56,250 nucleotides of DNA from Candidatus Nanohaloarchaea archaeon (GTDB lineage Archaea; Nanohalarchaeota; Nanosalinia; Nanosalinales; Nanosalinaceae). How positions within the stretch are numbered: position 1 is the first letter of the stretch; every line of letters starts with the position of its first letter. The translations under genes and the position numbers were made by a program. The notes beneath the pieces were generated by a model, which saw only the letters and a list, made by a program, of their open reading frames with translations, searched no databases and was not told the origin of the DNA. Location of the stretch: positions 1 to 56,250 of the forward strand of contig JBEQAY010000004.1 in NCBI GenBank assembly GCA_041640075.1. Reading direction: 5' to 3'. Shown one piece after another: positions 1,341 through 9,447 of the stretch.

Positions 1341-1652
1341 TTAGAACATGTTTCCAAGTCCTTCAGCAGCTTCTTCCTCGTCAGCTTCGTCCTCATCTTC
1401 TTCCTCTTCCTCAGCTTCCTCTTCTTCGTCAGCTGAATCGTCGGAAGAACCGCCGGAAGGTGCTGCTGCGCCGCCTGCAACTGCTGTCTCCATCGCTTCC
1501 TGGATGTCGACATCTTCAAGAGCTGCGACTAGAGCTGCAATTTCGGAATCCTCAACGTCTAGACCTGCTGCGTTGACGATGTCCTGTAGGTTATCTTCTG
1601 TGATTTCCTTGTCTGCTTCTGAAAGTGTAAGTGCTGCGTAGATTAGTTCCAT
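1341..1652 (-). CDS. rpl12: 50S ribosomal stalk protein P1/L12
   Basis: MELIYAALTL N-terminus, Ala-rich hinge, acidic tail ending GLGNMF; GGTGA Shine-Dalgarno upstream. Confidence 0.97.
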   Translation of the reverse strand: MELIYAALTLSEADKEITEDNLQDIVNAAGLDVEDSEIAALVAALEDVDIQEAMETAVAGGAAAPSGGSSDDSADEEEEAEEEEEDEDEADEEEAAEGLGNMF

Positions 1653-2451: not shown

Positions 2452-2733
2452 CTAGTTTCTCCATGTTATGTATCCGAGTATAACCAGTGAGGCTGTTTCC
2501 AGGCTTCTGAGTATCAATCCTTGTTGTGCAACTTTTTCAGCGTACAGCCCCATCATCGTCCAGTTAAAGTAGAAGGCAAGTACGTTTTCCAGGAGGAGGA
2601 TTGATGCGAATATCAGCAGACCCAGTGAGAACTTCGAGTTCAGTTTCTGGTAGTTCTGGGCGTACACATATATAAGGGAAACCAGTATCAGGGCGTTGAG
2701 TCCCGAGAGAACTAGTGACGTTTCGGTAATCAT
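2452..2733 (-). CDS. Small 3-TM membrane protein co-transcribed with the wHTH regulator
   Basis: Three hydrophobic helices; starts 6 nt after the regulator's stop. Confidence 0.75.
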   Translation of the reverse strand: MITETSLVLSGLNALILVSLIYVYAQNYQKLNSKFSLGLLIFASILLLENVLAFYFNWTMMGLYAEKVAQQGLILRSLETASLVILGYITWRN

Positions 2734-2739
2734 GGTTTA

Positions 2740-3033
2740 CTAGTTGCCTCCGTTCTGTTTATCTATCTTTTCCCAGATATCATCGAAAACCTGTATTTCG
2801 TTCTCAAGCCTATCTGATATACTGTACATCTTGCCGTAGTCTTCTTCACCAGCCTCCACGAGGCCGTTGTCTTCAAGTTTTCTGAGGTGGTACGTGACGG
2901 TTTTGTAGTCTAGATTCAGGTTTTCCGAGAGCTGGTTAGGGTTGAATGGTCGTTCCCTGAGTTCGTTGATTATCTTGGCACGTGTCTCTCCTCCTTTCGT
3001 ACCCCCTATAAGGTGCCAGAGAAGAGATTTCAT
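2740..3033 (-). CDS. ArsR-like winged-helix transcriptional regulator
   Basis: GTKGGETRAKII...PFNPNQLSENLNLDYKTVTYHLRKLEDNGLV is a typical archaeal ArsR/HTH. Start at MKSLLW (3033) preferred. Confidence 0.88.
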   Translation of the reverse strand: MKSLLWHLIGGTKGGETRAKIINELRERPFNPNQLSENLNLDYKTVTYHLRKLEDNGLVEAGEEDYGKMYSISDRLENEIQVFDDIWEKIDKQNGGN

Positions 3034-3144
3034 GTCCGTGCCAAAGGTCATGTCGAAAACAGTAAGTCGCAGGATTAAAAATTATGTATTAGAGCATTAT
3101 CCTGAGAAGGCTGGTGACTGCGTTGCAATTTTTCAGTTGGAATC

Positions 3145-3165
3145 AATTTGGGAAACAATCTGGAA
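3145..3165 (+). promoter_or_regulatory. Putative operator (tandem TGG[A/G]A half-sites) upstream of the redox operon
   Basis: aatttgggaaacaatctggaa, 17/21 identical to 6614..6634; a TATA-like ctttat follows about 26 nt before the ATG at 3205. Confidence 0.55.
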
Positions 3166-3204
3166 TTGGTTAAAAACCCTTTATCGCATTAGTAATGGAT
3201 AGTT

Positions 3205-3489
3205 ATGATTGAAGAGCTTAAGAAGAACAAGTTTTTGTTGGCAGTGCTGCTAGTAGTAGGTATAGGTGGCGTAGTTTTTGCGGCTATCCAGACAGACCTG
3301 ATTGATTCAGTGACTGGAGAAGAACCACAGGATCATTCTGGCGAAGCTATGGAGGCCGGAGAGGCCATGAAAGCCCAGGATGATCTAGGTGAAGAGTCAA
3401 CAGACTCAGATTCCATGGACTCTGGAGGCTCCATGAATGACTCCGTGGATTCAAATGACTCGATGAACGATTCAATGTCGGAGCAGTGA
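3205..3489 (+). CDS. Membrane-anchored Met/Ser/Asp-rich small protein
   Basis: Basic N-terminus and one TM helix, then a low-complexity acidic tail with six Met in EAM/DSM/GSM repeats. Confidence 0.8.
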   Translation: MIEELKKNKFLLAVLLVVGIGGVVFAAIQTDLIDSVTGEEPQDHSGEAMEAGEAMKAQDDLGEESTDSDSMDSGGSMNDSVDSNDSMNDSMSEQ

Positions 3490-3496
3490 TTCAATA

Positions 3497-4201
3497 ATGG
3501 CGGCAGAACCTACCCTGGTATTTTCCTTCTTTGCAGGGCTTCTTTCCTTTTTATCGCCCTGTATGCTGCCTGTAATACCAGCATTCATCGCACACATGGC
3601 AGGAGCCAATCTTGAAGATAACTTTAACAGGAGGAAAGTGTTCCTGACTGCTCTGCTTTTCGTAACAGGGTTTTCGGTGGTCTTCGGGATACTGGGTGTC
3701 CTTCTTAACTCATTCCTCGAATCAGCGAGTACACAGATACTTCACTACCTCTCGATCTTCGCTGGAGGCCTGATAATATTCTTCGGTGCACACCTGACAG
3801 GGATAATAAGCATACCAAACCTTGACAGGGAGCACAAGCTTGGACTGGAAGACAAGCTTGGATCAGGCTATATTTCATCCTTCATACTTGGAGCAGCCTT
3901 CGCCGTAGGCTGGACACCTTGCGTGGGACCTATCCTTGGAAGCGTCTTCGCACTGGCATCTACGAGCCCTGGTTCGGCGTTCTTCCTGCTCCTGGCTTAC
4001 TCTATAGGACTTGGAGCGCCGTTCCTGTTGATAGGTGCTTTCCCTAACAGGTTCAGAGAGTACATCATGCAGAGGATGGACAAGGTTTCAAAGGTCAGGA
4101 CAGTCTTTGGTTACATAATGATCCTGATGGGGGTACTGATCGCGACACAAAATCTTTCACTGCTGGCCAGCTTCGGAATACTGAATGAGGTGCTGCTATG
4201 A
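3497..4201 (+). CDS. ccdA: CcdA/DsbD transmembrane electron transporter
   Basis: AGLLSFLSPCMLP and GWTPCVGPILG motifs; about 6 TM. Confidence 0.93.
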   Translation: MAAEPTLVFSFFAGLLSFLSPCMLPVIPAFIAHMAGANLEDNFNRRKVFLTALLFVTGFSVVFGILGVLLNSFLESASTQILHYLSIFAGGLIIFFGAHLTGIISIPNLDREHKLGLEDKLGSGYISSFILGAAFAVGWTPCVGPILGSVFALASTSPGSAFFLLLAYSIGLGAPFLLIGAFPNRFREYIMQRMDKVSKVRTVFGYIMILMGVLIATQNLSLLASFGILNEVLL

Positions 4202-5316
4202 ATATCGAGGTAGAAAAACCCTATCAGTTCGCCGTGCTAATGCTACTGGTCGCAGGAGCAATAGGATTCAGCCTGGTAAACACTCCTGAAGGAGCAAATA
4301 CTGAAGGTATAGATGTCATGAACGAGACAGAGGCTGTCGAAATGAAGCAGGAAGAGTTCCAGAGGGCGAAACCTCTGGTTAATCCTACAGGTTACATCAA
4401 CACCGACAACGTCTCGATAGAGGAGAACATCGGAGAGAAAGTTATACTGCTTGATATGTGGACCTATAGCTGTATAAACTGTCAGAGAACATTTCCACAT
4501 CTGAAAGAGTGGAACAGGAAGTATAGGGACGACGGACTGCTTATCATAGGAAACCATGGACCAGAGTTTGAATTCGAGAAGAAGAGATCCAACGTCGAGG
4601 ACGCGGTCGAAAAATACAACCTGACCTACCCCATTGTCCTCGACAACAACTACGGAACCTGGAACGCCTACAACAATCGTTACTGGCCCCAGAAATACCT
4701 GATAGGGGTTGACGGATTCATCAGATACGAGCACATTGGAGAAGGAAGATACGAGCAGACAGAGGAGAAGATAAGAGAGCTGCTCAAGGAACTGAAGATG
4801 CGGAATGGACAGGATCCAACACTGACCGATGAGATAGGTCAGAGTCCGGAGGAAGAGCAGCTTGACTCGACAGACGTGAACTCCGACATGATCAAGACAC
4901 CTGAAATATACCTGGGGACCTACAGGAATGATTACCTGGCCAACGGGCGGAACGGCACGAAAGGGACTCAGAACCTCACTGTCCCAGAAGAATTGGAAAA
5001 GAACAATCTTTATCTGGGTGGAGAATGGAACTTTGAGGAAGAATACGCTGAAAACAGTGGTTCGGGAGAGATACTGTTGAGATACGAGGCGAAGAGAGTC
5101 AACATGGTGCTGGAAGGAGATAACACAACAATCAAGGTATACCAGGACGGAGAACTGGTATCAGAATCCGCAGGAAGAAATGTGGAAAACGGAAGAGTTA
5201 AAGTCGGAGACGAACAGCTGTACAACCTGGTGGCGAACAACGAGTATGGCGAACATAGATTGAGGATCAAGGTTGAAAACGGCGCCCTGAAAGCCTATAC
5301 ATTCACATTCGGATAG
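4198..5316 (+). CDS. Membrane-anchored thioredoxin, DipZ C-terminal type
   Basis: N-terminal TM; WTYSCINC active site; HGPEFEFEK and NRYWP motifs; C-terminal TPEIYLG...AYTFTFG domain as in DipZ. Confidence 0.88.
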   Translation: MNIEVEKPYQFAVLMLLVAGAIGFSLVNTPEGANTEGIDVMNETEAVEMKQEEFQRAKPLVNPTGYINTDNVSIEENIGEKVILLDMWTYSCINCQRTFPHLKEWNRKYRDDGLLIIGNHGPEFEFEKKRSNVEDAVEKYNLTYPIVLDNNYGTWNAYNNRYWPQKYLIGVDGFIRYEHIGEGRYEQTEEKIRELLKELKMRNGQDPTLTDEIGQSPEEEQLDSTDVNSDMIKTPEIYLGTYRNDYLANGRNGTKGTQNLTVPEELEKNNLYLGGEWNFEEEYAENSGSGEILLRYEAKRVNMVLEGDNTTIKVYQDGELVSESAGRNVENGRVKVGDEQLYNLVANNEYGEHRLRIKVENGALKAYTFTFG

Positions 5317-5340: not shown

Positions 5341-5880
5341 ATGAAAACTAAAGATTTCGACCGAAAAACGTATATACTGGCAGGTTCAGCTCTGGCGCTG
5401 GCCATTTTCGTAGCTTTTGGAGCAACTCAAAACGCTAGAACTACAGGAGCAGTCAATTCATCGGCCTGGCAGGAAGTGGAGCTCCAGGACGTGAACTCTG
5501 GTGACTCATTCACTGTAACAGAGCTTGAGAAGCCTCTTCTTGTTGAAACGTTTGCTGTCTGGTGTCCGACCTGTACAAACCAGCAGAACGAGATAAAGAA
5601 ACTGAAAGAAGATTCCAACGTAACTTCAGTTTCTCTAGACGTCGATTCCAATGAAGACGAGCAACAGATCAGCCGACACACGGAGGAAAACGGTTTCGAC
5701 TGGCGCTACGCCATCTCGCCGCCTGAACTGACACGTATGCTGATCCAGGAGTACGGTAACTCCATCGCGAATCCTCCTTCAGCACCGGTAGTGCTTGTTT
5801 GTGAAAACAGCAGCAGAAGGCTTTCAAACGGTGTGAAAACAGCTTCCACACTCCAACAGGAGATACAGGAGGGTTGCTGA
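5341..5880 (+). CDS. Membrane-anchored thioredoxin-fold (TlpA-like) protein
   Basis: N-terminal TM; FAVWCPTC motif; two further C-terminal Cys. Confidence 0.85.
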   Translation: MKTKDFDRKTYILAGSALALAIFVAFGATQNARTTGAVNSSAWQEVELQDVNSGDSFTVTELEKPLLVETFAVWCPTCTNQQNEIKKLKEDSNVTSVSLDVDSNEDEQQISRHTEENGFDWRYAISPPELTRMLIQEYGNSIANPPSAPVVLVCENSSRRLSNGVKTASTLQQEIQEGC

Positions 5881-6555
5881 ATGGTACTCGGAGAGCTGTC
5901 AACATCGTTTCTTCTTGGACTTGCTACGCCTCTGACAGCTCTCTGCGTGATACCTCTTTATCCCAGCTTTATCTCATACCTTTCAAAACAGCTTGACGGA
6001 GATACTGATCAGAAGACGTACCTTTTCTTTGGTTTGCTGGTTGTGGCGGGAGTCATTAGCTTCATGCTGGCACTTGGACTGGTTTTCTCCACTCTGCTTC
6101 AGGCATCGCTTACAAGCGTGATCGAGATAGTTTCACCGGTAGCCTTTGCCGTCTTAGGTTTGATGGGTATCGCCATGATGCTGGACCTAGATTTCCAGAG
6201 CTACCTGCCCTCGAAGAGGACTCCGGAGTTCGAGAATCCGCTTGTGAACGCCTACGGCTTCGGTTTCTTCTTCGGCGCCATAATCATCCCCTGCAACCCT
6301 GCGTTCATCGCAACTTTCTTTGCAAGAGCGTTCCTGTTCGAAACACCTGTTACAAGCTTCCTGAACTTCATGTCGTTCGGACTCGGTATAGGCTTCCCGT
6401 TGCTGGCTTTCTCCGTGATTTCACAGTCAAAGAGCCAGGAAGTAATCAAAACACTCCAGAAACACTCATCGATAATACACAGAGGGTCAGGCCTTGTCAT
6501 GATGGTTATATCACTTTACTACCTGATCAAGGTCTTCAACGTACTGACTATCTAG
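5881..6555 (+). CDS. Second, divergent CcdA-family membrane protein
   Basis: PLTALCVIPLYP and AIIIPCNP Cys motifs; about 6 TM; GLGIGFPLL. Confidence 0.82.
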   Translation: MVLGELSTSFLLGLATPLTALCVIPLYPSFISYLSKQLDGDTDQKTYLFFGLLVVAGVISFMLALGLVFSTLLQASLTSVIEIVSPVAFAVLGLMGIAMMLDLDFQSYLPSKRTPEFENPLVNAYGFGFFFGAIIIPCNPAFIATFFARAFLFETPVTSFLNFMSFGLGIGFPLLAFSVISQSKSQEVIKTLQKHSSIIHRGSGLVMMVISLYYLIKVFNVLTI

Positions 6556-6613
6556 AATCAGGAGGTTGAAATCAACTAGATGATCAAAAACCATGACAGA
6601 TCGCAGGTTCCTG

Positions 6614-6634
6614 AATCTGGGAGAGATTCTGGAA
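6614..6634 (+). promoter_or_regulatory. Putative operator upstream of msrB-msrA
   Basis: aatctgggagagattctggaa, followed by a TATA-like ttttat at 6640; matches 3145..3165 at 17/21 positions. Confidence 0.55.
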
Positions 6635-6668
6635 AGCGGTTTTATGCAAAGACGAGGAACATAGTACT

Positions 6669-7280
6669 ATGAATTACAGGGCTAAACTGGAGGATAAACG
6701 AGTACTTGCAGTCCTCGGTTTCGTTTTTTCAGGTCTGCTCCTTGCAGCGATTTCTGTATCAATCTCCGGACAGTTCATGGCTTCAGATGATGAAAAAACC
6801 GGGGAGGTCCCGGAAAGCAAGGAAGAGTACAGCCAGGAGATCTCACAGTTAACGGAGATGGAGTACTATGTTACACAGCAGAACGGGACGGAACCGGCAT
6901 TTGAAAACCAGTACTACGATCACAAGCAGCCAGGTATCTATGTGGATGCCGTGAGCGGAGAGCCACTTTTTTCCAGCAAGCACAAGTACGACTCCGGCAC
7001 CGGTTGGCCAGCCTTCTATAAACCACTGGAGCCTGAGAATTTGATCATAAGAGAAGATAGAGGGCCGCTGGGTGTCAGAACCGAGGTGGCAAGCAAGGAC
7101 GCAAGAAGTCATCTGGGCCACATCTTCCAGGACGGACCGGAGGATAAAACCGGTTTGAGGTACTGTATAAACAGCGCAGCCCTTGAATTCATCCCTGCAG
7201 AAGACCTAGAGGAGAAGGGATACGCTGAGTACAGCTTGATGTTTGAAACCGAAAACTCGACTCAGGGTGGCGACCAGTGA
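6669..7280 (+). CDS. msrB: Peptide methionine-R-sulfoxide reductase with N-terminal membrane anchor
   Basis: GTEPAF, KYDSGTGWPAF, SHLGHIF and RYCINSAAL motifs; no Zn CxxC pairs; N-terminal TM. Confidence 0.95.
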   Translation: MNYRAKLEDKRVLAVLGFVFSGLLLAAISVSISGQFMASDDEKTGEVPESKEEYSQEISQLTEMEYYVTQQNGTEPAFENQYYDHKQPGIYVDAVSGEPLFSSKHKYDSGTGWPAFYKPLEPENLIIREDRGPLGVRTEVASKDARSHLGHIFQDGPEDKTGLRYCINSAALEFIPAEDLEEKGYAEYSLMFETENSTQGGDQ

Positions 7281-7981
7281 AGGATAGAAACTTCAGGATT
7301 GGCATGGCACTCATAGTCTTCGGATTTGCTGGTGCAGCAGTCCAATTCGGTTATCTGGAGATCCCTTTATCGGGTGTAACCTCTCAGCAACCTGTGAATA
7401 CTGATTCGGGAGTCCAGGAATCCTGGAAACAGAATATAACGAATCAGACGCCTGTAAACGCAACCTTTGCGGGAGGGTGCTTCTGGTGCATAGAGGGAGC
7501 ATACATGGGTGTTGAAGGAGTAGAGGCCGCGATCAGTGGCTACGCAGGTGGCAGAGAATCCACGGCCACGTATGACCAGGTTACCACGGGAGAGACAGAT
7601 CACAGGGAAGCAGTCAGGGTCAGGTACTATCCTTCAATCATTTCCTATCAGGAACTGCTGGAGATATATTGGAAAAGCATCGATCCTACAGATCCCGGCG
7701 GCCAGTTCTCGGACAGAGGACCACAGTACACTACAGCGATCTATCCTCACAACGATGAGCAATATAGGCTCTCAAGGGAATCCAAGCAGAATCTCTCCCA
7801 GTCAGGGAAGTTTGAGGAACCGATTGTAACGGAGATAGAGAACTACACTGCTTTCTTCCGTGCAGAAGACTACCATCAGAACTACTCGAAGAAGAACACT
7901 GCACAGTACAAGGCCTACGAAAGAGCATCCGGAAGGAAAGGATACGTGGAGAAAGTCTGGGACGACAGCCCTCTGACGTAA
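7277..7981 (+). CDS. msrA: Peptide methionine-S-sulfoxide reductase with N-terminal membrane anchor
   Basis: FAGGCFWC, GYAGG, GQFSDRGPQY and AEDYHQNY motifs; GTG start overlaps the msrB stop. Confidence 0.95.
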   Translation: MKDRNFRIGMALIVFGFAGAAVQFGYLEIPLSGVTSQQPVNTDSGVQESWKQNITNQTPVNATFAGGCFWCIEGAYMGVEGVEAAISGYAGGRESTATYDQVTTGETDHREAVRVRYYPSIISYQELLEIYWKSIDPTDPGGQFSDRGPQYTTAIYPHNDEQYRLSRESKQNLSQSGKFEEPIVTEIENYTAFFRAEDYHQNYSKKNTAQYKAYERASGRKGYVEKVWDDSPLT

Positions 7982-8000: not shown

Positions 8001-8390
8001 TTAAGCACTCTTCAACTCTATCTTGTACCCGAAAGGATCTCTGATGTAGACGCCGGGCCCTCTACCTGTAGCGCCGAGAGGATGCCCCTCTCTCAGGATT
8101 TCAATATTATTTTCCTCTAAAATCTCTTTCACGTCGTCAATTTTTTCGTTTAGGGTTACGCAGAAGTGATCAAAACTTTTTCCTGAAGGCCTCTGGAAAT
8201 TTTCCTTCGGCCGGATGTTGATGACTGCTTCTTCGCTTATCCTGAAGAAAAACGAGGTCCGCTCACCGTTCTGAAATTCTTCCAGCTTCATAGGTTCGAA
8301 GCCGAGAACTCGCTGGTAAAAATTTACAGCTTCATCAATTCCTTCTTCTGGTATCCTGATGTTGATGTGATCGATACCTTCCCCTTTCAT
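8001..8390 (-). CDS. VOC/glyoxalase family protein
   Basis: IDHINI, FYQRVLGF, DHFCV and YIRDPFGYKIEL motifs. Confidence 0.9.
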   Translation of the reverse strand: MKGEGIDHINIRIPEEGIDEAVNFYQRVLGFEPMKLEEFQNGERTSFFFRISEEAVINIRPKENFQRPSGKSFDHFCVTLNEKIDDVKEILEENNIEILREGHPLGATGRGPGVYIRDPFGYKIELKSA

Positions 8391-8484: not shown

Positions 8485-9447
8485 TTATTCTTCCTCTTCT
8501 TCGGACTCGTCTTCTGAGTCTTCGTTGTCAGCTTCAGGTTCCTCAGCTGATTCCTCGTCATCTTCCTGAAGTTCTTCCTTTGCTGCTTCCAGATCGACTT
8601 CTGAGTCGACTGATTCTGCAGCTGATGCTGCGTAACTGACTGCTTCTTCGATTGTCTCTTCTTCTGGAAGTCCTTCGCTGATTGAGACGTTCTTCGCTTT
8701 CTGTGCTGCTTCGCTGATGATTGCCGGTGCTGTTGTCTCGTTGACAACTCCTGCGTTGACTGCAAGGTTGAATCCAGCTGCTGCAGCTGCTTCGATGTCT
8801 TCTCTGTATTCGTCGACGTCGATTGCGAGGTCGTCTGCTCTGAATATTTCTCCATCGCTGTATGCTACTACCAGGTCAAGTCCGATCTGGAGTGGTTCGA
8901 TTCCGATCTGGTTGAGGATTTCTGCGTCTTCCTCTGTAATCTCTTCACCTGCTTCCACGATGACTGAAGGTTCCTGTACGTGGATTGAACCGTCCTGTAC
9001 CTGGACCTGTGCTCCTGCCTGCTGGAGTTTTCCAAGCATTGGGCCTGGCCCGATTCCTGTGTCTCCTTCAGGGATTTCGATGTCGTTAGGTGCGATCTCT
9101 CCTCCGTCGGCAGCTGCACTCGTCTGGTTCTCCTGGATCAGCTGGTATAGCTGGAACGGGTCTTTCTCGGAGAAGATGAATGCTGGCTGCATCGCTTCAT
9201 CTGTATCAAGCTGGTCGATTCCTTCTTTCTCAGCGTTTCCGAGTGCGATGTTCATCAAGGTCTTCCTGGACATCTTGATGTCAGCGAACTCCTCGATCTC
9301 TGACTCGATCTCTTGAAGCTGACGTGCTGGAAGGCTCTGCATGTCAAGGATTCCGATTACATCGTAGTCCTCAAGATCTCCCCCGAATTCTTCGACCTTT
9401 GCTTCCTTCTGCTCACGTGTCAGATTCTTTGGGGTTGGCTGCACCAT
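8485..9447 (-). CDS. rpl10: 50S ribosomal protein L10/P0
   Basis: LPARQLQEI, GEIAPNDIEIPEGDTGIGPGP, acidic C-terminal tail; operon position. Confidence 0.97.
   Translation of the reverse strand: MVQPTPKNLTREQKEAKVEEFGGDLEDYDVIGILDMQSLPARQLQEIESEIEEFADIKMSRKTLMNIALGNAEKEGIDQLDTDEAMQPAFIFSEKDPFQLYQLIQENQTSAAADGGEIAPNDIEIPEGDTGIGPGPMLGKLQQAGAQVQVQDGSIHVQEPSVIVEAGEEITEEDAEILNQIGIEPLQIGLDLVVAYSDGEIFRADDLAIDVDEYREDIEAAAAAGFNLAVNAGVVNETTAPAIISEAAQKAKNVSISEGLPEEETIEEAVSYAASAAESVDSEVDLEAAKEELQEDDEESAEEPEADNEDSEDESEEEEE

Follow-up and report, generated by a model that had tools for sequence, protein, structure and literature searches.

Sacrificial Met-rich peptides have been documented in Proteobacteria, together with the quinone-fed MsrPQ system (PMC4436054, PMC8315932). 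MrpX of Azospira suillum is a small exported peptide with about 20% Met and many charged residues, encoded with YedYZ/MsrPQ (PMC4436054). BcrX of Brucella melitensis is a further Met-rich precedent (PMC8315932), and UPEC C3568 is an analogous peptide that responds to peroxide (PMC8550376). Peptides of the MrpX/BcrX type are induced and oxidized by hypochlorite and re-reduced in vivo. In some perchlorate reducers, exported MsrA/MsrB are encoded beside mrpX-type islands (PMC4623255), so the pairing of a Met peptide with thiol-dependent Msr enzymes has a bacterial precedent. A surface pathway built from CcdA1-Etrx1, CcdA2-Etrx2, and MsrAB2 has been described in Streptococcus pneumoniae (PMC3914529). 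As for archaea, nanohaloarchaea live by fermentation, lack respiratory complexes, and are attached to aerobic hosts in sunlit brine (PMC10266531); the accessible text of that study catalogues their msrA genes and mentions no such peptide. The introduction of PMC6267482 describes HOCl as common where chloride is abundant. Our literature search, largely confined to openly accessible papers, found no archaeal Met-rich sink peptide.

We analyzed a 56,250-nucleotide stretch (the window) from a Candidatus Nanohaloarchaea archaeon (contig JBEQAY010000004.1), whose genome (G000) comprises 0.98 Mb and encodes an acidic proteome. A small gene in this window starts with ATG and encodes a 94-residue protein (Table 1). 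Its translation bore out the original prediction of a Cys-free protein with six internal Met in short repeats (residues 49, 55, 71, 77, 87, and 91), and the repeats quoted there were present. The N terminus carries KKNK followed by an apolar run of 19 residues, and the 66-residue tail has a net charge of −19. Internal Met accounts for 6.5% of the protein versus 2.1% of the proteome, which ranks it 7th among 973 crudely called ORFs of the genome, 19 of which contain at least six Met within 45 residues. The Met enrichment of this single sequence is modest, barely above chance; it goes beyond chance because it is conserved in homologues, as described below. No Pfam or NCBIfam family was matched by the protein, a search of the ESM Atlas was uninformative (best score, 0.78), and a DNA repeat search returned short codon-level repeats only. 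Scanning for sigma-70 promoters and terminators, a model not apt for an archaeon, gave results at chance level. An AlphaFold model computed from a nine-row alignment was of low confidence (mean pLDDT 57.5, pTM 0.19), with helices at residues 9 to 36 and 48 to 65 and no structure after residue 65, and it is consistent with a disordered tail.

Export signals were called by composition rules. Lys/Arg immediately precede the apolar run, which is 18 to 23 residues long, in all nine aligned members. Because of these residues and of the acidity of the tail, the tail is predicted to lie outside the cell and not in the cytoplasm. The run ends in Ala, after which most aligned members have a small residue and then the conserved QT, and a signal-peptidase-like Ala stands at its end in 9/9. 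Ala followed by a small residue after an apolar run is the rule for a signal-peptidase site, and a cleavable signal peptide and a membrane anchor fit the sequence equally. Thus, of the earlier description "membrane-tethered", the apolar segment with its export-type flank stands, but the tether itself competes with cleavage. If the signal peptide were cut, the unfolded 7-kDa peptide could be lost through the S-layer.

The peptide gene was expected to head an operon, and a same-strand run does start with it, in the order peptide-ccdA1-dipZ-trx-ccdA2-msrB-msrA. Successive gaps from the peptide gene to ccdA2 are 7, −4, 24, and 0 nt, followed by 113 nt to msrB. The products of the run match DsbD_TM (CcdA, twice), DipZ-type thioredoxin plus PF17991, Redoxin, SelR, and PMSR. 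The features of a CcdA-thioredoxin-MsrA/B pathway are present: two CcdA proteins with two conserved Cys each, exported-type CxxC thioredoxins, and MsrA and MsrB with catalytic Cys. The N-terminal apolar runs of the DipZ, thioredoxin, and Msr proteins span 15 to 23 residues. MsrA and MsrB had been called adjacent to the peptide; their genes lie in the same cluster but 3.2 to 3.8 kb downstream. A second msrA and msrB, of the cytoplasmic type, are located on contig C6 of the same genome, and PF00174 (MsrP-type) genes were found neither in G000 nor in the two other genomes that carry the peptide, G003 and G008. Proteins of Candidatus Nanosalina (NCBI naming) show 87% identity to the product of the PF26119 gene and 44% to the peptide. 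The genes of the ribosomal L10-L12 pair (window 1341-1652 to 8485-9447) are separated by the redox cluster plus genes for an HTH protein (1704-2441) and a glyoxalase-family protein (8001-8390); the insertion position is the same in G003 and in the metagenome loci L083 and L086, and differs in G008, L085, and L087.

Table 1. Features of the peptide gene cluster, with coordinates in the window
Feature	Position	Strand	Support
Regulator partner: hydrophobic membrane protein, 93 aa (PF26119), divergent	2452..2733	-	
ArsR-like winged-helix regulator, Cys-free, divergent	2740..3051	-	PF01022, E 4.5e-11
Conserved 22-nt operator-like motif, before TATA-like TTAAAAA (3170-3176)	3144..3165	+	Aligned in 7/7 upstream regions
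Gene of the predicted Met-rich exported peptide, 94 aa	3205..3489	+	19 family members at E<=0.01; 17 clusters at 50% identity
Apolar segment, residues 10-28 (putative signal peptide or type II anchor), with VFAAI at its end and a conserved QT next	3232..3288	+	
Acidic repeat tail; (D/E/G)-(A/S)-M contexts for its six Met; family repeats recur every 6-7 residues	3340..3477	+	
CcdA1 transmembrane electron carrier, Cys22/Cys142 in PC motifs	3497..4201	+	
Anchored DipZ-type thioredoxin (CINC), C-terminal PF17991 domain	4198..5316	+	Best PDB match DipZ 2hyx, E 1.8e-48
Anchored TlpA-like thioredoxin (CPTC)	5341..5880	+	
CcdA2, Cys22/Cys138	5881..6555	+	
Second copy of the motif, before msrB-msrA, then TTTTAT (6640-6645)	6613..6634	+	32.4 bits
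MsrB, N-terminal apolar segment, single catalytic Cys166	6669..7280	+	
MsrA, N-terminal apolar segment, GCFWC (Cys68/Cys71)	7277..7981	+	

Syntenic loci were collected through the neighboring DipZ gene and not through the peptide. Eight of 80 metagenome loci form a close clade (66 to 89% identity), and all seven that include the upstream region carry, 7 to 12 nt before ccdA1, a small ORF with an apolar segment and 6 to 15 Met. G003 and G008 have the peptide in the same slot before ccdA1; the G003 copy is split over two frames, in an assembly where further genes are split as well, and intact near-identical copies exist in L086 and P0045. Merging the near-duplicates G003/L086 and L085/L098 gave eight distinct syntenic loci, the window among them. 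Their distal tails have Met at 72 of 488 residues (14.8%), and it constitutes 89% of the hydrophobics, with nine Ile/Leu/Val and Ile being absent altogether, so the Met enrichment is kept in homologues. As a control, 18 polar post-TM segments of G000 contain 11 Met among 218 hydrophobics (5%), and the stalks of other anchored proteins in the same operons contain 24 Met in 1100 residues (2.2%; near-duplicate loci included). The residue following [DE][AS] in the distal tails is Met 50 times versus I/L/V 3 times, compared with 142 versus 1402 in the proteome. Thus, the conserved feature appears to be the thioether rather than bulk hydrophobicity.

A profile search returned 19 proteins; run against 1.84 billion representatives, it gave 17 clusters, and 16 of these are 72 to 118 aa long. 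Tail Met averages 10.6% in 18 homologues (range, 3.2 to 14.7%), a set partly Met-selected by the profile and from which the split P0055 was excluded; three homologues hold only two or three Met. Successive Met are 6 or 7 residues apart in 59 of 102 intervals, 5 apart in 9, and 1 to 3 apart in 8. Asp/Glu stands two residues before 89 of 120 Met, and Lys is rare in these tails. A defined end (SMEQ-like) and a core (GDAM..AQ.D) are kept in the family. Low-complexity matches of the single-protein search at E>1e-3, along with the G049 match (E 0.00175), were discounted as compositional in bulk rather than case by case. In a CcdA1 tree, all eight peptide loci fall into one clade (100/100), and they therefore represent one origin, not eight. 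The peptide varies from 81 to 135 aa by repeat number, while CcdA1 remains 78 to 94% identical, as would be expected of a sink in which capacity matters and shape does not.

The same data bear on whether the ORF is a relic, that is, an anchor and stalk left over when an ancestral surface thioredoxin lost its catalytic domain, and maintained only as a spacer or to couple translation to ccdA1. In this slot, other loci of DPANN and CPR do carry an anchor-stalk-thioredoxin protein, and some of the stalks (as in L208) have the same DSM hexad. Drift would be expected of a relic, and Met is one substitution away from Ile, Leu, and Val, yet these residues are nearly absent and the end and core are retained. 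Furthermore, the 17 clusters found among the 1.84 billion representatives include no thioredoxin fusion, and the argument for descent from one is an argument from position. The composition test has already weakened this explanation, which we regard as very unlikely; an origin by fusion is nevertheless compatible with a sink role.

The strongest support at the sequence level for a link between the peptide and Msr is a shared promoter motif. A matrix trained on five peptide promoters from outside G000 was used to scan its 980 kb on both strands. The msrB promoter ranked first in the genome (32.4 bits) and the peptide promoter second (23.5 bits), followed by a match at 21.0 bits; the same scan of three shuffled genomes gave maxima of 18.7 to 22.0 bits. 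The motif also precedes msrB in G003, L083, and L086, and a degenerate pattern occurred at exactly two sites, those of the peptide and msrB, in G000 and likewise in G003. In G008 the pattern marked the peptide site plus one unrelated site with two mismatches; there was no occurrence in G052 or G069, and the reversed control gave 0. The motif is absent before the cytoplasmic msrA/msrB genes and before the copper cluster, with scores of at most 8.4 bits. In L087, the anchored msrB is divergent from the peptide gene across 130 nt. The conserved 22-nt motif before both the peptide gene and msrB-msrA goes beyond the original observation; Met-rich peptide sinks that use a different recharging system are known from bacteria. 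Being common to both promoters, the motif supports an MrpX-like sink that would be fed by a thiol relay and not by MsrPQ. A look-alike in L102 lies inside an HTH coding end and was not counted. In L083, a third copy (3679-3700; 27.1 bits) and a TATA-like box precede a stand-alone response-regulator receiver gene that adjoins the cluster.

The ArsR-like regulator likely binds this motif, and the PF26119 membrane protein is possibly its sensor partner. Close PF26119 orthologues occur in the same three of 70 phylum genomes as the peptide, and the motif agrees with this distribution in the five genomes scanned. The pair stands beside ccdA, dipZ, or thioredoxin genes also in distant archaea (L102, L134, L137, L141, L194, L198, L208, and L210), which makes it a candidate archaeal envelope-redox sensor and the motif a candidate binding site for an unstudied regulator pair. 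We asked whether the peptide itself could be the signal, with the PF26119 protein reading its oxidation state and tuning the ArsR-like regulator. The regulator is Cys-free, so sensing must come from elsewhere; among 14 aligned PF26119 proteins, 11 carry Met at loop position 60-61, and this loop is predicted to be an outer one; close orthologues of the PF26119 protein share their three genomes with the peptide. On the other hand, L134, L135, L137, L141, and L142 contain the regulator pair but no Met-rich gene in the slot, and a variable repeat number suits bulk capacity more than signaling. A signaling peptide thus seems highly improbable to us.

Across the 70 genomes of the phylum, the peptide is present in 3, MsrA of the envelope clade in 18, and MsrB of the envelope clade in 14, and all three peptide genomes carry the envelope-clade MsrA. 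ccdA1-dipZ adjoin the peptide in all eight loci, while an msr gene lies in the cluster in four (both genes in three, msrB alone in one). The four others comprise three short contigs and G008. In G008, which is 98% complete, peptide-ccdA1-dipZ occupy one contig and thioredoxin-ccdA2-msrA another that lacks the motif; its sole MsrB has no anchor, an anchored one being absent. These data qualify the linkage to msr genes in the original prediction: the motif is common with msrB-msrA in G000 and three other loci, but clustering with msr (4/8) falls short of that with ccdA1-dipZ (8/8). None of 20 other envelope-Msr loci contains a comparable small exported Met-rich gene or a strong motif (best, 20.3 bits), indicating that the Msr pair works without the peptide. 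Envelope msr clusters of nanohaloarchaea (L213, L339, L341, and L351) also feature a DUF3179 gene, recognized by Pfam for G008 and by BLAST fragments elsewhere, and a membrane protein of about 280 aa with a C-terminal thioredoxin-like domain.

This distribution raises the question of whether the peptide partners CcdA1-DipZ instead of MsrA/MsrB, in which case the DipZ-type protein would reduce its Met sulfoxides or a disposable sink would simply be remade. The invariant adjacency fits such a partnership, and so do the co-occurrence of the peptide, close regulator orthologues, and motif in the same three of 70 genomes, the separation from msrA in G008, and the existence of Met-stalk thioredoxins in genomes without anchored Msr. 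The thioredoxin domain of DipZ is also related to that of SOQ1 (E 3.9e-19), a protein with reported Msr activity; however, the accessible text assigns that activity to a Cys pair of the C-terminal domain (bioRxiv 2024.11.01.621559), and this DipZ has only Cys92/Cys95. Moreover, the best copy of the motif is that of the msrB-msrA promoter, and G052 and G069 have ccdA1-dipZ but no peptide. We consider this partnership unlikely. A broader version would unite the peptide, CcdA1, DipZ, and the HTH/PF26119 pair in a self-contained archaeal unit for oxidant sensing and scavenging, in which DipZ itself reduces Met-rich peptides and stalks, the peptide is a freed thioredoxin stalk, and the same chemistry operates across DPANN and CPR organisms that have no respiratory chain for MsrPQ. 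This proposal is more speculative still, and the literature searched names no substrate for a DipZ-type protein.

Met spacing is informative on a metal-binding role, in which the tail would be a soft-metal (Cu+/Ag+) sponge protecting the surface thiol relay. Met coordinates Cu(I) where His and acidic residues are close by, and His occurs before or within the repeats in 12 of 19 homologues, leaving 7 of 19 with none. Cu(I)-binding Met motifs are of the MxM/MxxM type, but a spacing of 1 to 3 is found in only 8 of the 102 intervals, against 59 with a spacing of 6 to 7. In addition, the copper-type ATPase of the genome lies on contig C21 with no motif in its upstream region (best, 6.2 bits), and the peptide loci show no copper gene. 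A metal sponge is, in our judgment, quite unlikely.

Compared with the bacterial sinks, the archaeal peptide resembles MrpX, BcrX, and C3568 in being small, predicted to be exported, of low complexity, charged, Met-rich, and poorly conserved in sequence, and in its probable coregulation with an extracytoplasmic Met-sulfoxide reductase, which is deduced here from the shared motif. It differs from MrpX/BcrX in its archaeal host, in its acidic (D/E)(A/S)M repeats of 6 to 7 residues versus Lys-rich MXKDX pentads, in a thiol-fed MsrA/MsrB with two CcdA and two thioredoxins versus the Mo-dependent YedYZ/MsrPQ, and in its regulators, an ArsR-like HTH plus PF26119 protein versus a SigF/NrsF-type ECF pair or a two-component system. 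Tail Met is 9% in the window, 10.6% over the 18 homologues, and 14.8% in the distal tails of the eight loci, compared with 20% in MrpX. The peptide may work like MrpX/BcrX by analogy while standing outside their membership, having neither an MsrP-type gene nor an ECF pair. Like TIGR02953 proteins, it has repeats after a putative signal sequence, and in these repeats Asp stands two positions ahead of Met; the period (6 to 7 in 59/102 intervals), the rarity of Lys, and the charge are unlike the five-residue Met-X-Lys-Asp-X repeat of that family. Its HMM (cutoff, 41 bits) did not match the window protein and gave E 4.2 for one of nine aligned members and 19.9 bits, the best of any family member, for one of seven further proteins, so the peptide is not a member of the MXKDX family.

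As in the pneumococcal pathway, there are two CcdA proteins, two surface thioredoxins, and anchored MsrA/MsrB, here predicted to be outside the membrane. Unlike that pathway, MsrA and MsrB are separate proteins, one thioredoxin is of the DipZ type with a PF17991 domain, and the cluster begins with the gene of a Met-rich peptide and a divergent regulator pair; the accessible text of PMC3914529 names no dedicated Met-rich peptide for the pneumococcus.

Taken together, judged from its sequence and homologues, the peptide is real and conserved, its function as a sink is likely, and its recharging by MsrA/MsrB is likely as well. Our preferred explanation, which we hold to be probable though far from assured, is that it is a coregulated exported Met sink at the cell surface, recycled by the envelope MsrA and MsrB via two CcdA-thioredoxin pairs. 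The ArsR-like regulator and its membrane partner would switch on peptide-ccdA1-dipZ-trx-ccdA2 and msrB-msrA through the shared motif, in response to a presumed inducer. The peptide would cross the membrane with its tail outward and would then stay anchored or be cut after Ala26/27. Its exposed Met thioethers could be converted into sulfoxides by HOCl/HOBr, by peroxide-derived species, or by singlet oxygen, as suggested by Met chemistry and by MrpX; nothing in the sequence selects reactive chlorine, the oxidant originally proposed. Electrons from cytoplasmic thioredoxin would pass to the two CcdA proteins, the two surface thioredoxins, and finally MsrA (for the S form) and MsrB (for the R form), following the pneumococcal two-pathway model. 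This thiol relay would take the place of MsrPQ, which is missing from the G000 genome. Counting against the Met sink are the one-clade origin, the presence of the peptide in 3/70 genomes versus 18/70 for MsrA, the separation in G008, the 9% Met of the window tail, and the Met-rich thioredoxin stalks of other archaea without anchored Msr (only G229 of five tested genomes has an anchored MsrA). If the preferred explanation is true, the strategy extends to archaea. Since nanohaloarchaea lack respiratory complexes and live in sunlit brine, a thiol-fed sink would explain how the envelope is protected in cells without a respiratory chain. The peptide also offers a small testable substrate for the envelope MsrA/MsrB and for DipZ.

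Elsewhere in DPANN and CPR, the slot beside ccdA/dipZ often holds an anchor, a stalk, and a thioredoxin in one protein, with a Met-rich stalk in L090, L095, L096, L100, L102, L193, L194, L208, L210, and L249. Like the peptide, these Met-stalk thioredoxins have a charged Met-rich segment after an export signal; in contrast to it, the segment is fused to thioredoxin and does not stand alone, and no sequence homology was detected between them. Anchored-thioredoxin stalks outside the phylum contain 0 to 14 Met in the 14 proteins listed, with further CPR cases, and sister branches differ in whether the stalk is Met-rich or Met-free (L203/L208 and L209/L210). We found no Met-rich-stalk surface thioredoxin of CPR or other DPANN in the published literature searched. 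Among five genomes with more Met-bearing stalks, one has an anchored MsrA (G229), three have cytoplasmic-type Msr only, and G348 has no MsrA or MsrB match, its PF00174 protein having no export signal. Where stalks are Met-poor, two of five genomes have Msr of the cytoplasmic type only. We also surveyed 80 bacterial MsrA-relative loci from 5 of the 64 parts of the collection. Four of them had Met-rich segments in exported proteins: an operon with a Met-stalk thioredoxin, MsrA-MsrB linkers in two loci, and one unrelated case. A Gracilibacteria locus from this survey combines a thioredoxin with a 19-Met stalk, CcdA-DipZ, and an anchored MsrAB in one run.

L249, from Gracilibacteria, was considered as a second stand-alone peptide and discarded, as it reads as a thioredoxin fusion with translation table 25. 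The stalks in L194 and L210 (genomes G348 and G354, without anchored Msr) consist of DGTM(I/V)KP repeats with 9 to 14 Met and represent a different type of Met repeat. Exported MsrA-MsrB fusions of Desulfobacterales (L234:172-1356 and L238:5947-7119) carry a Met-rich linker between the two domains. On a high-GC bacterial contig, a 61-aa signal-bearing Met-rich ORF (L105:4137-4322) upstream of a fused ccdA-dipZ is possibly another stand-alone peptide. In G000 itself, the most Met-rich ORF encodes a secreted 176-aa protein directly before a His-rich P-type ATPase (C21:12232-14769), likely a copper module.
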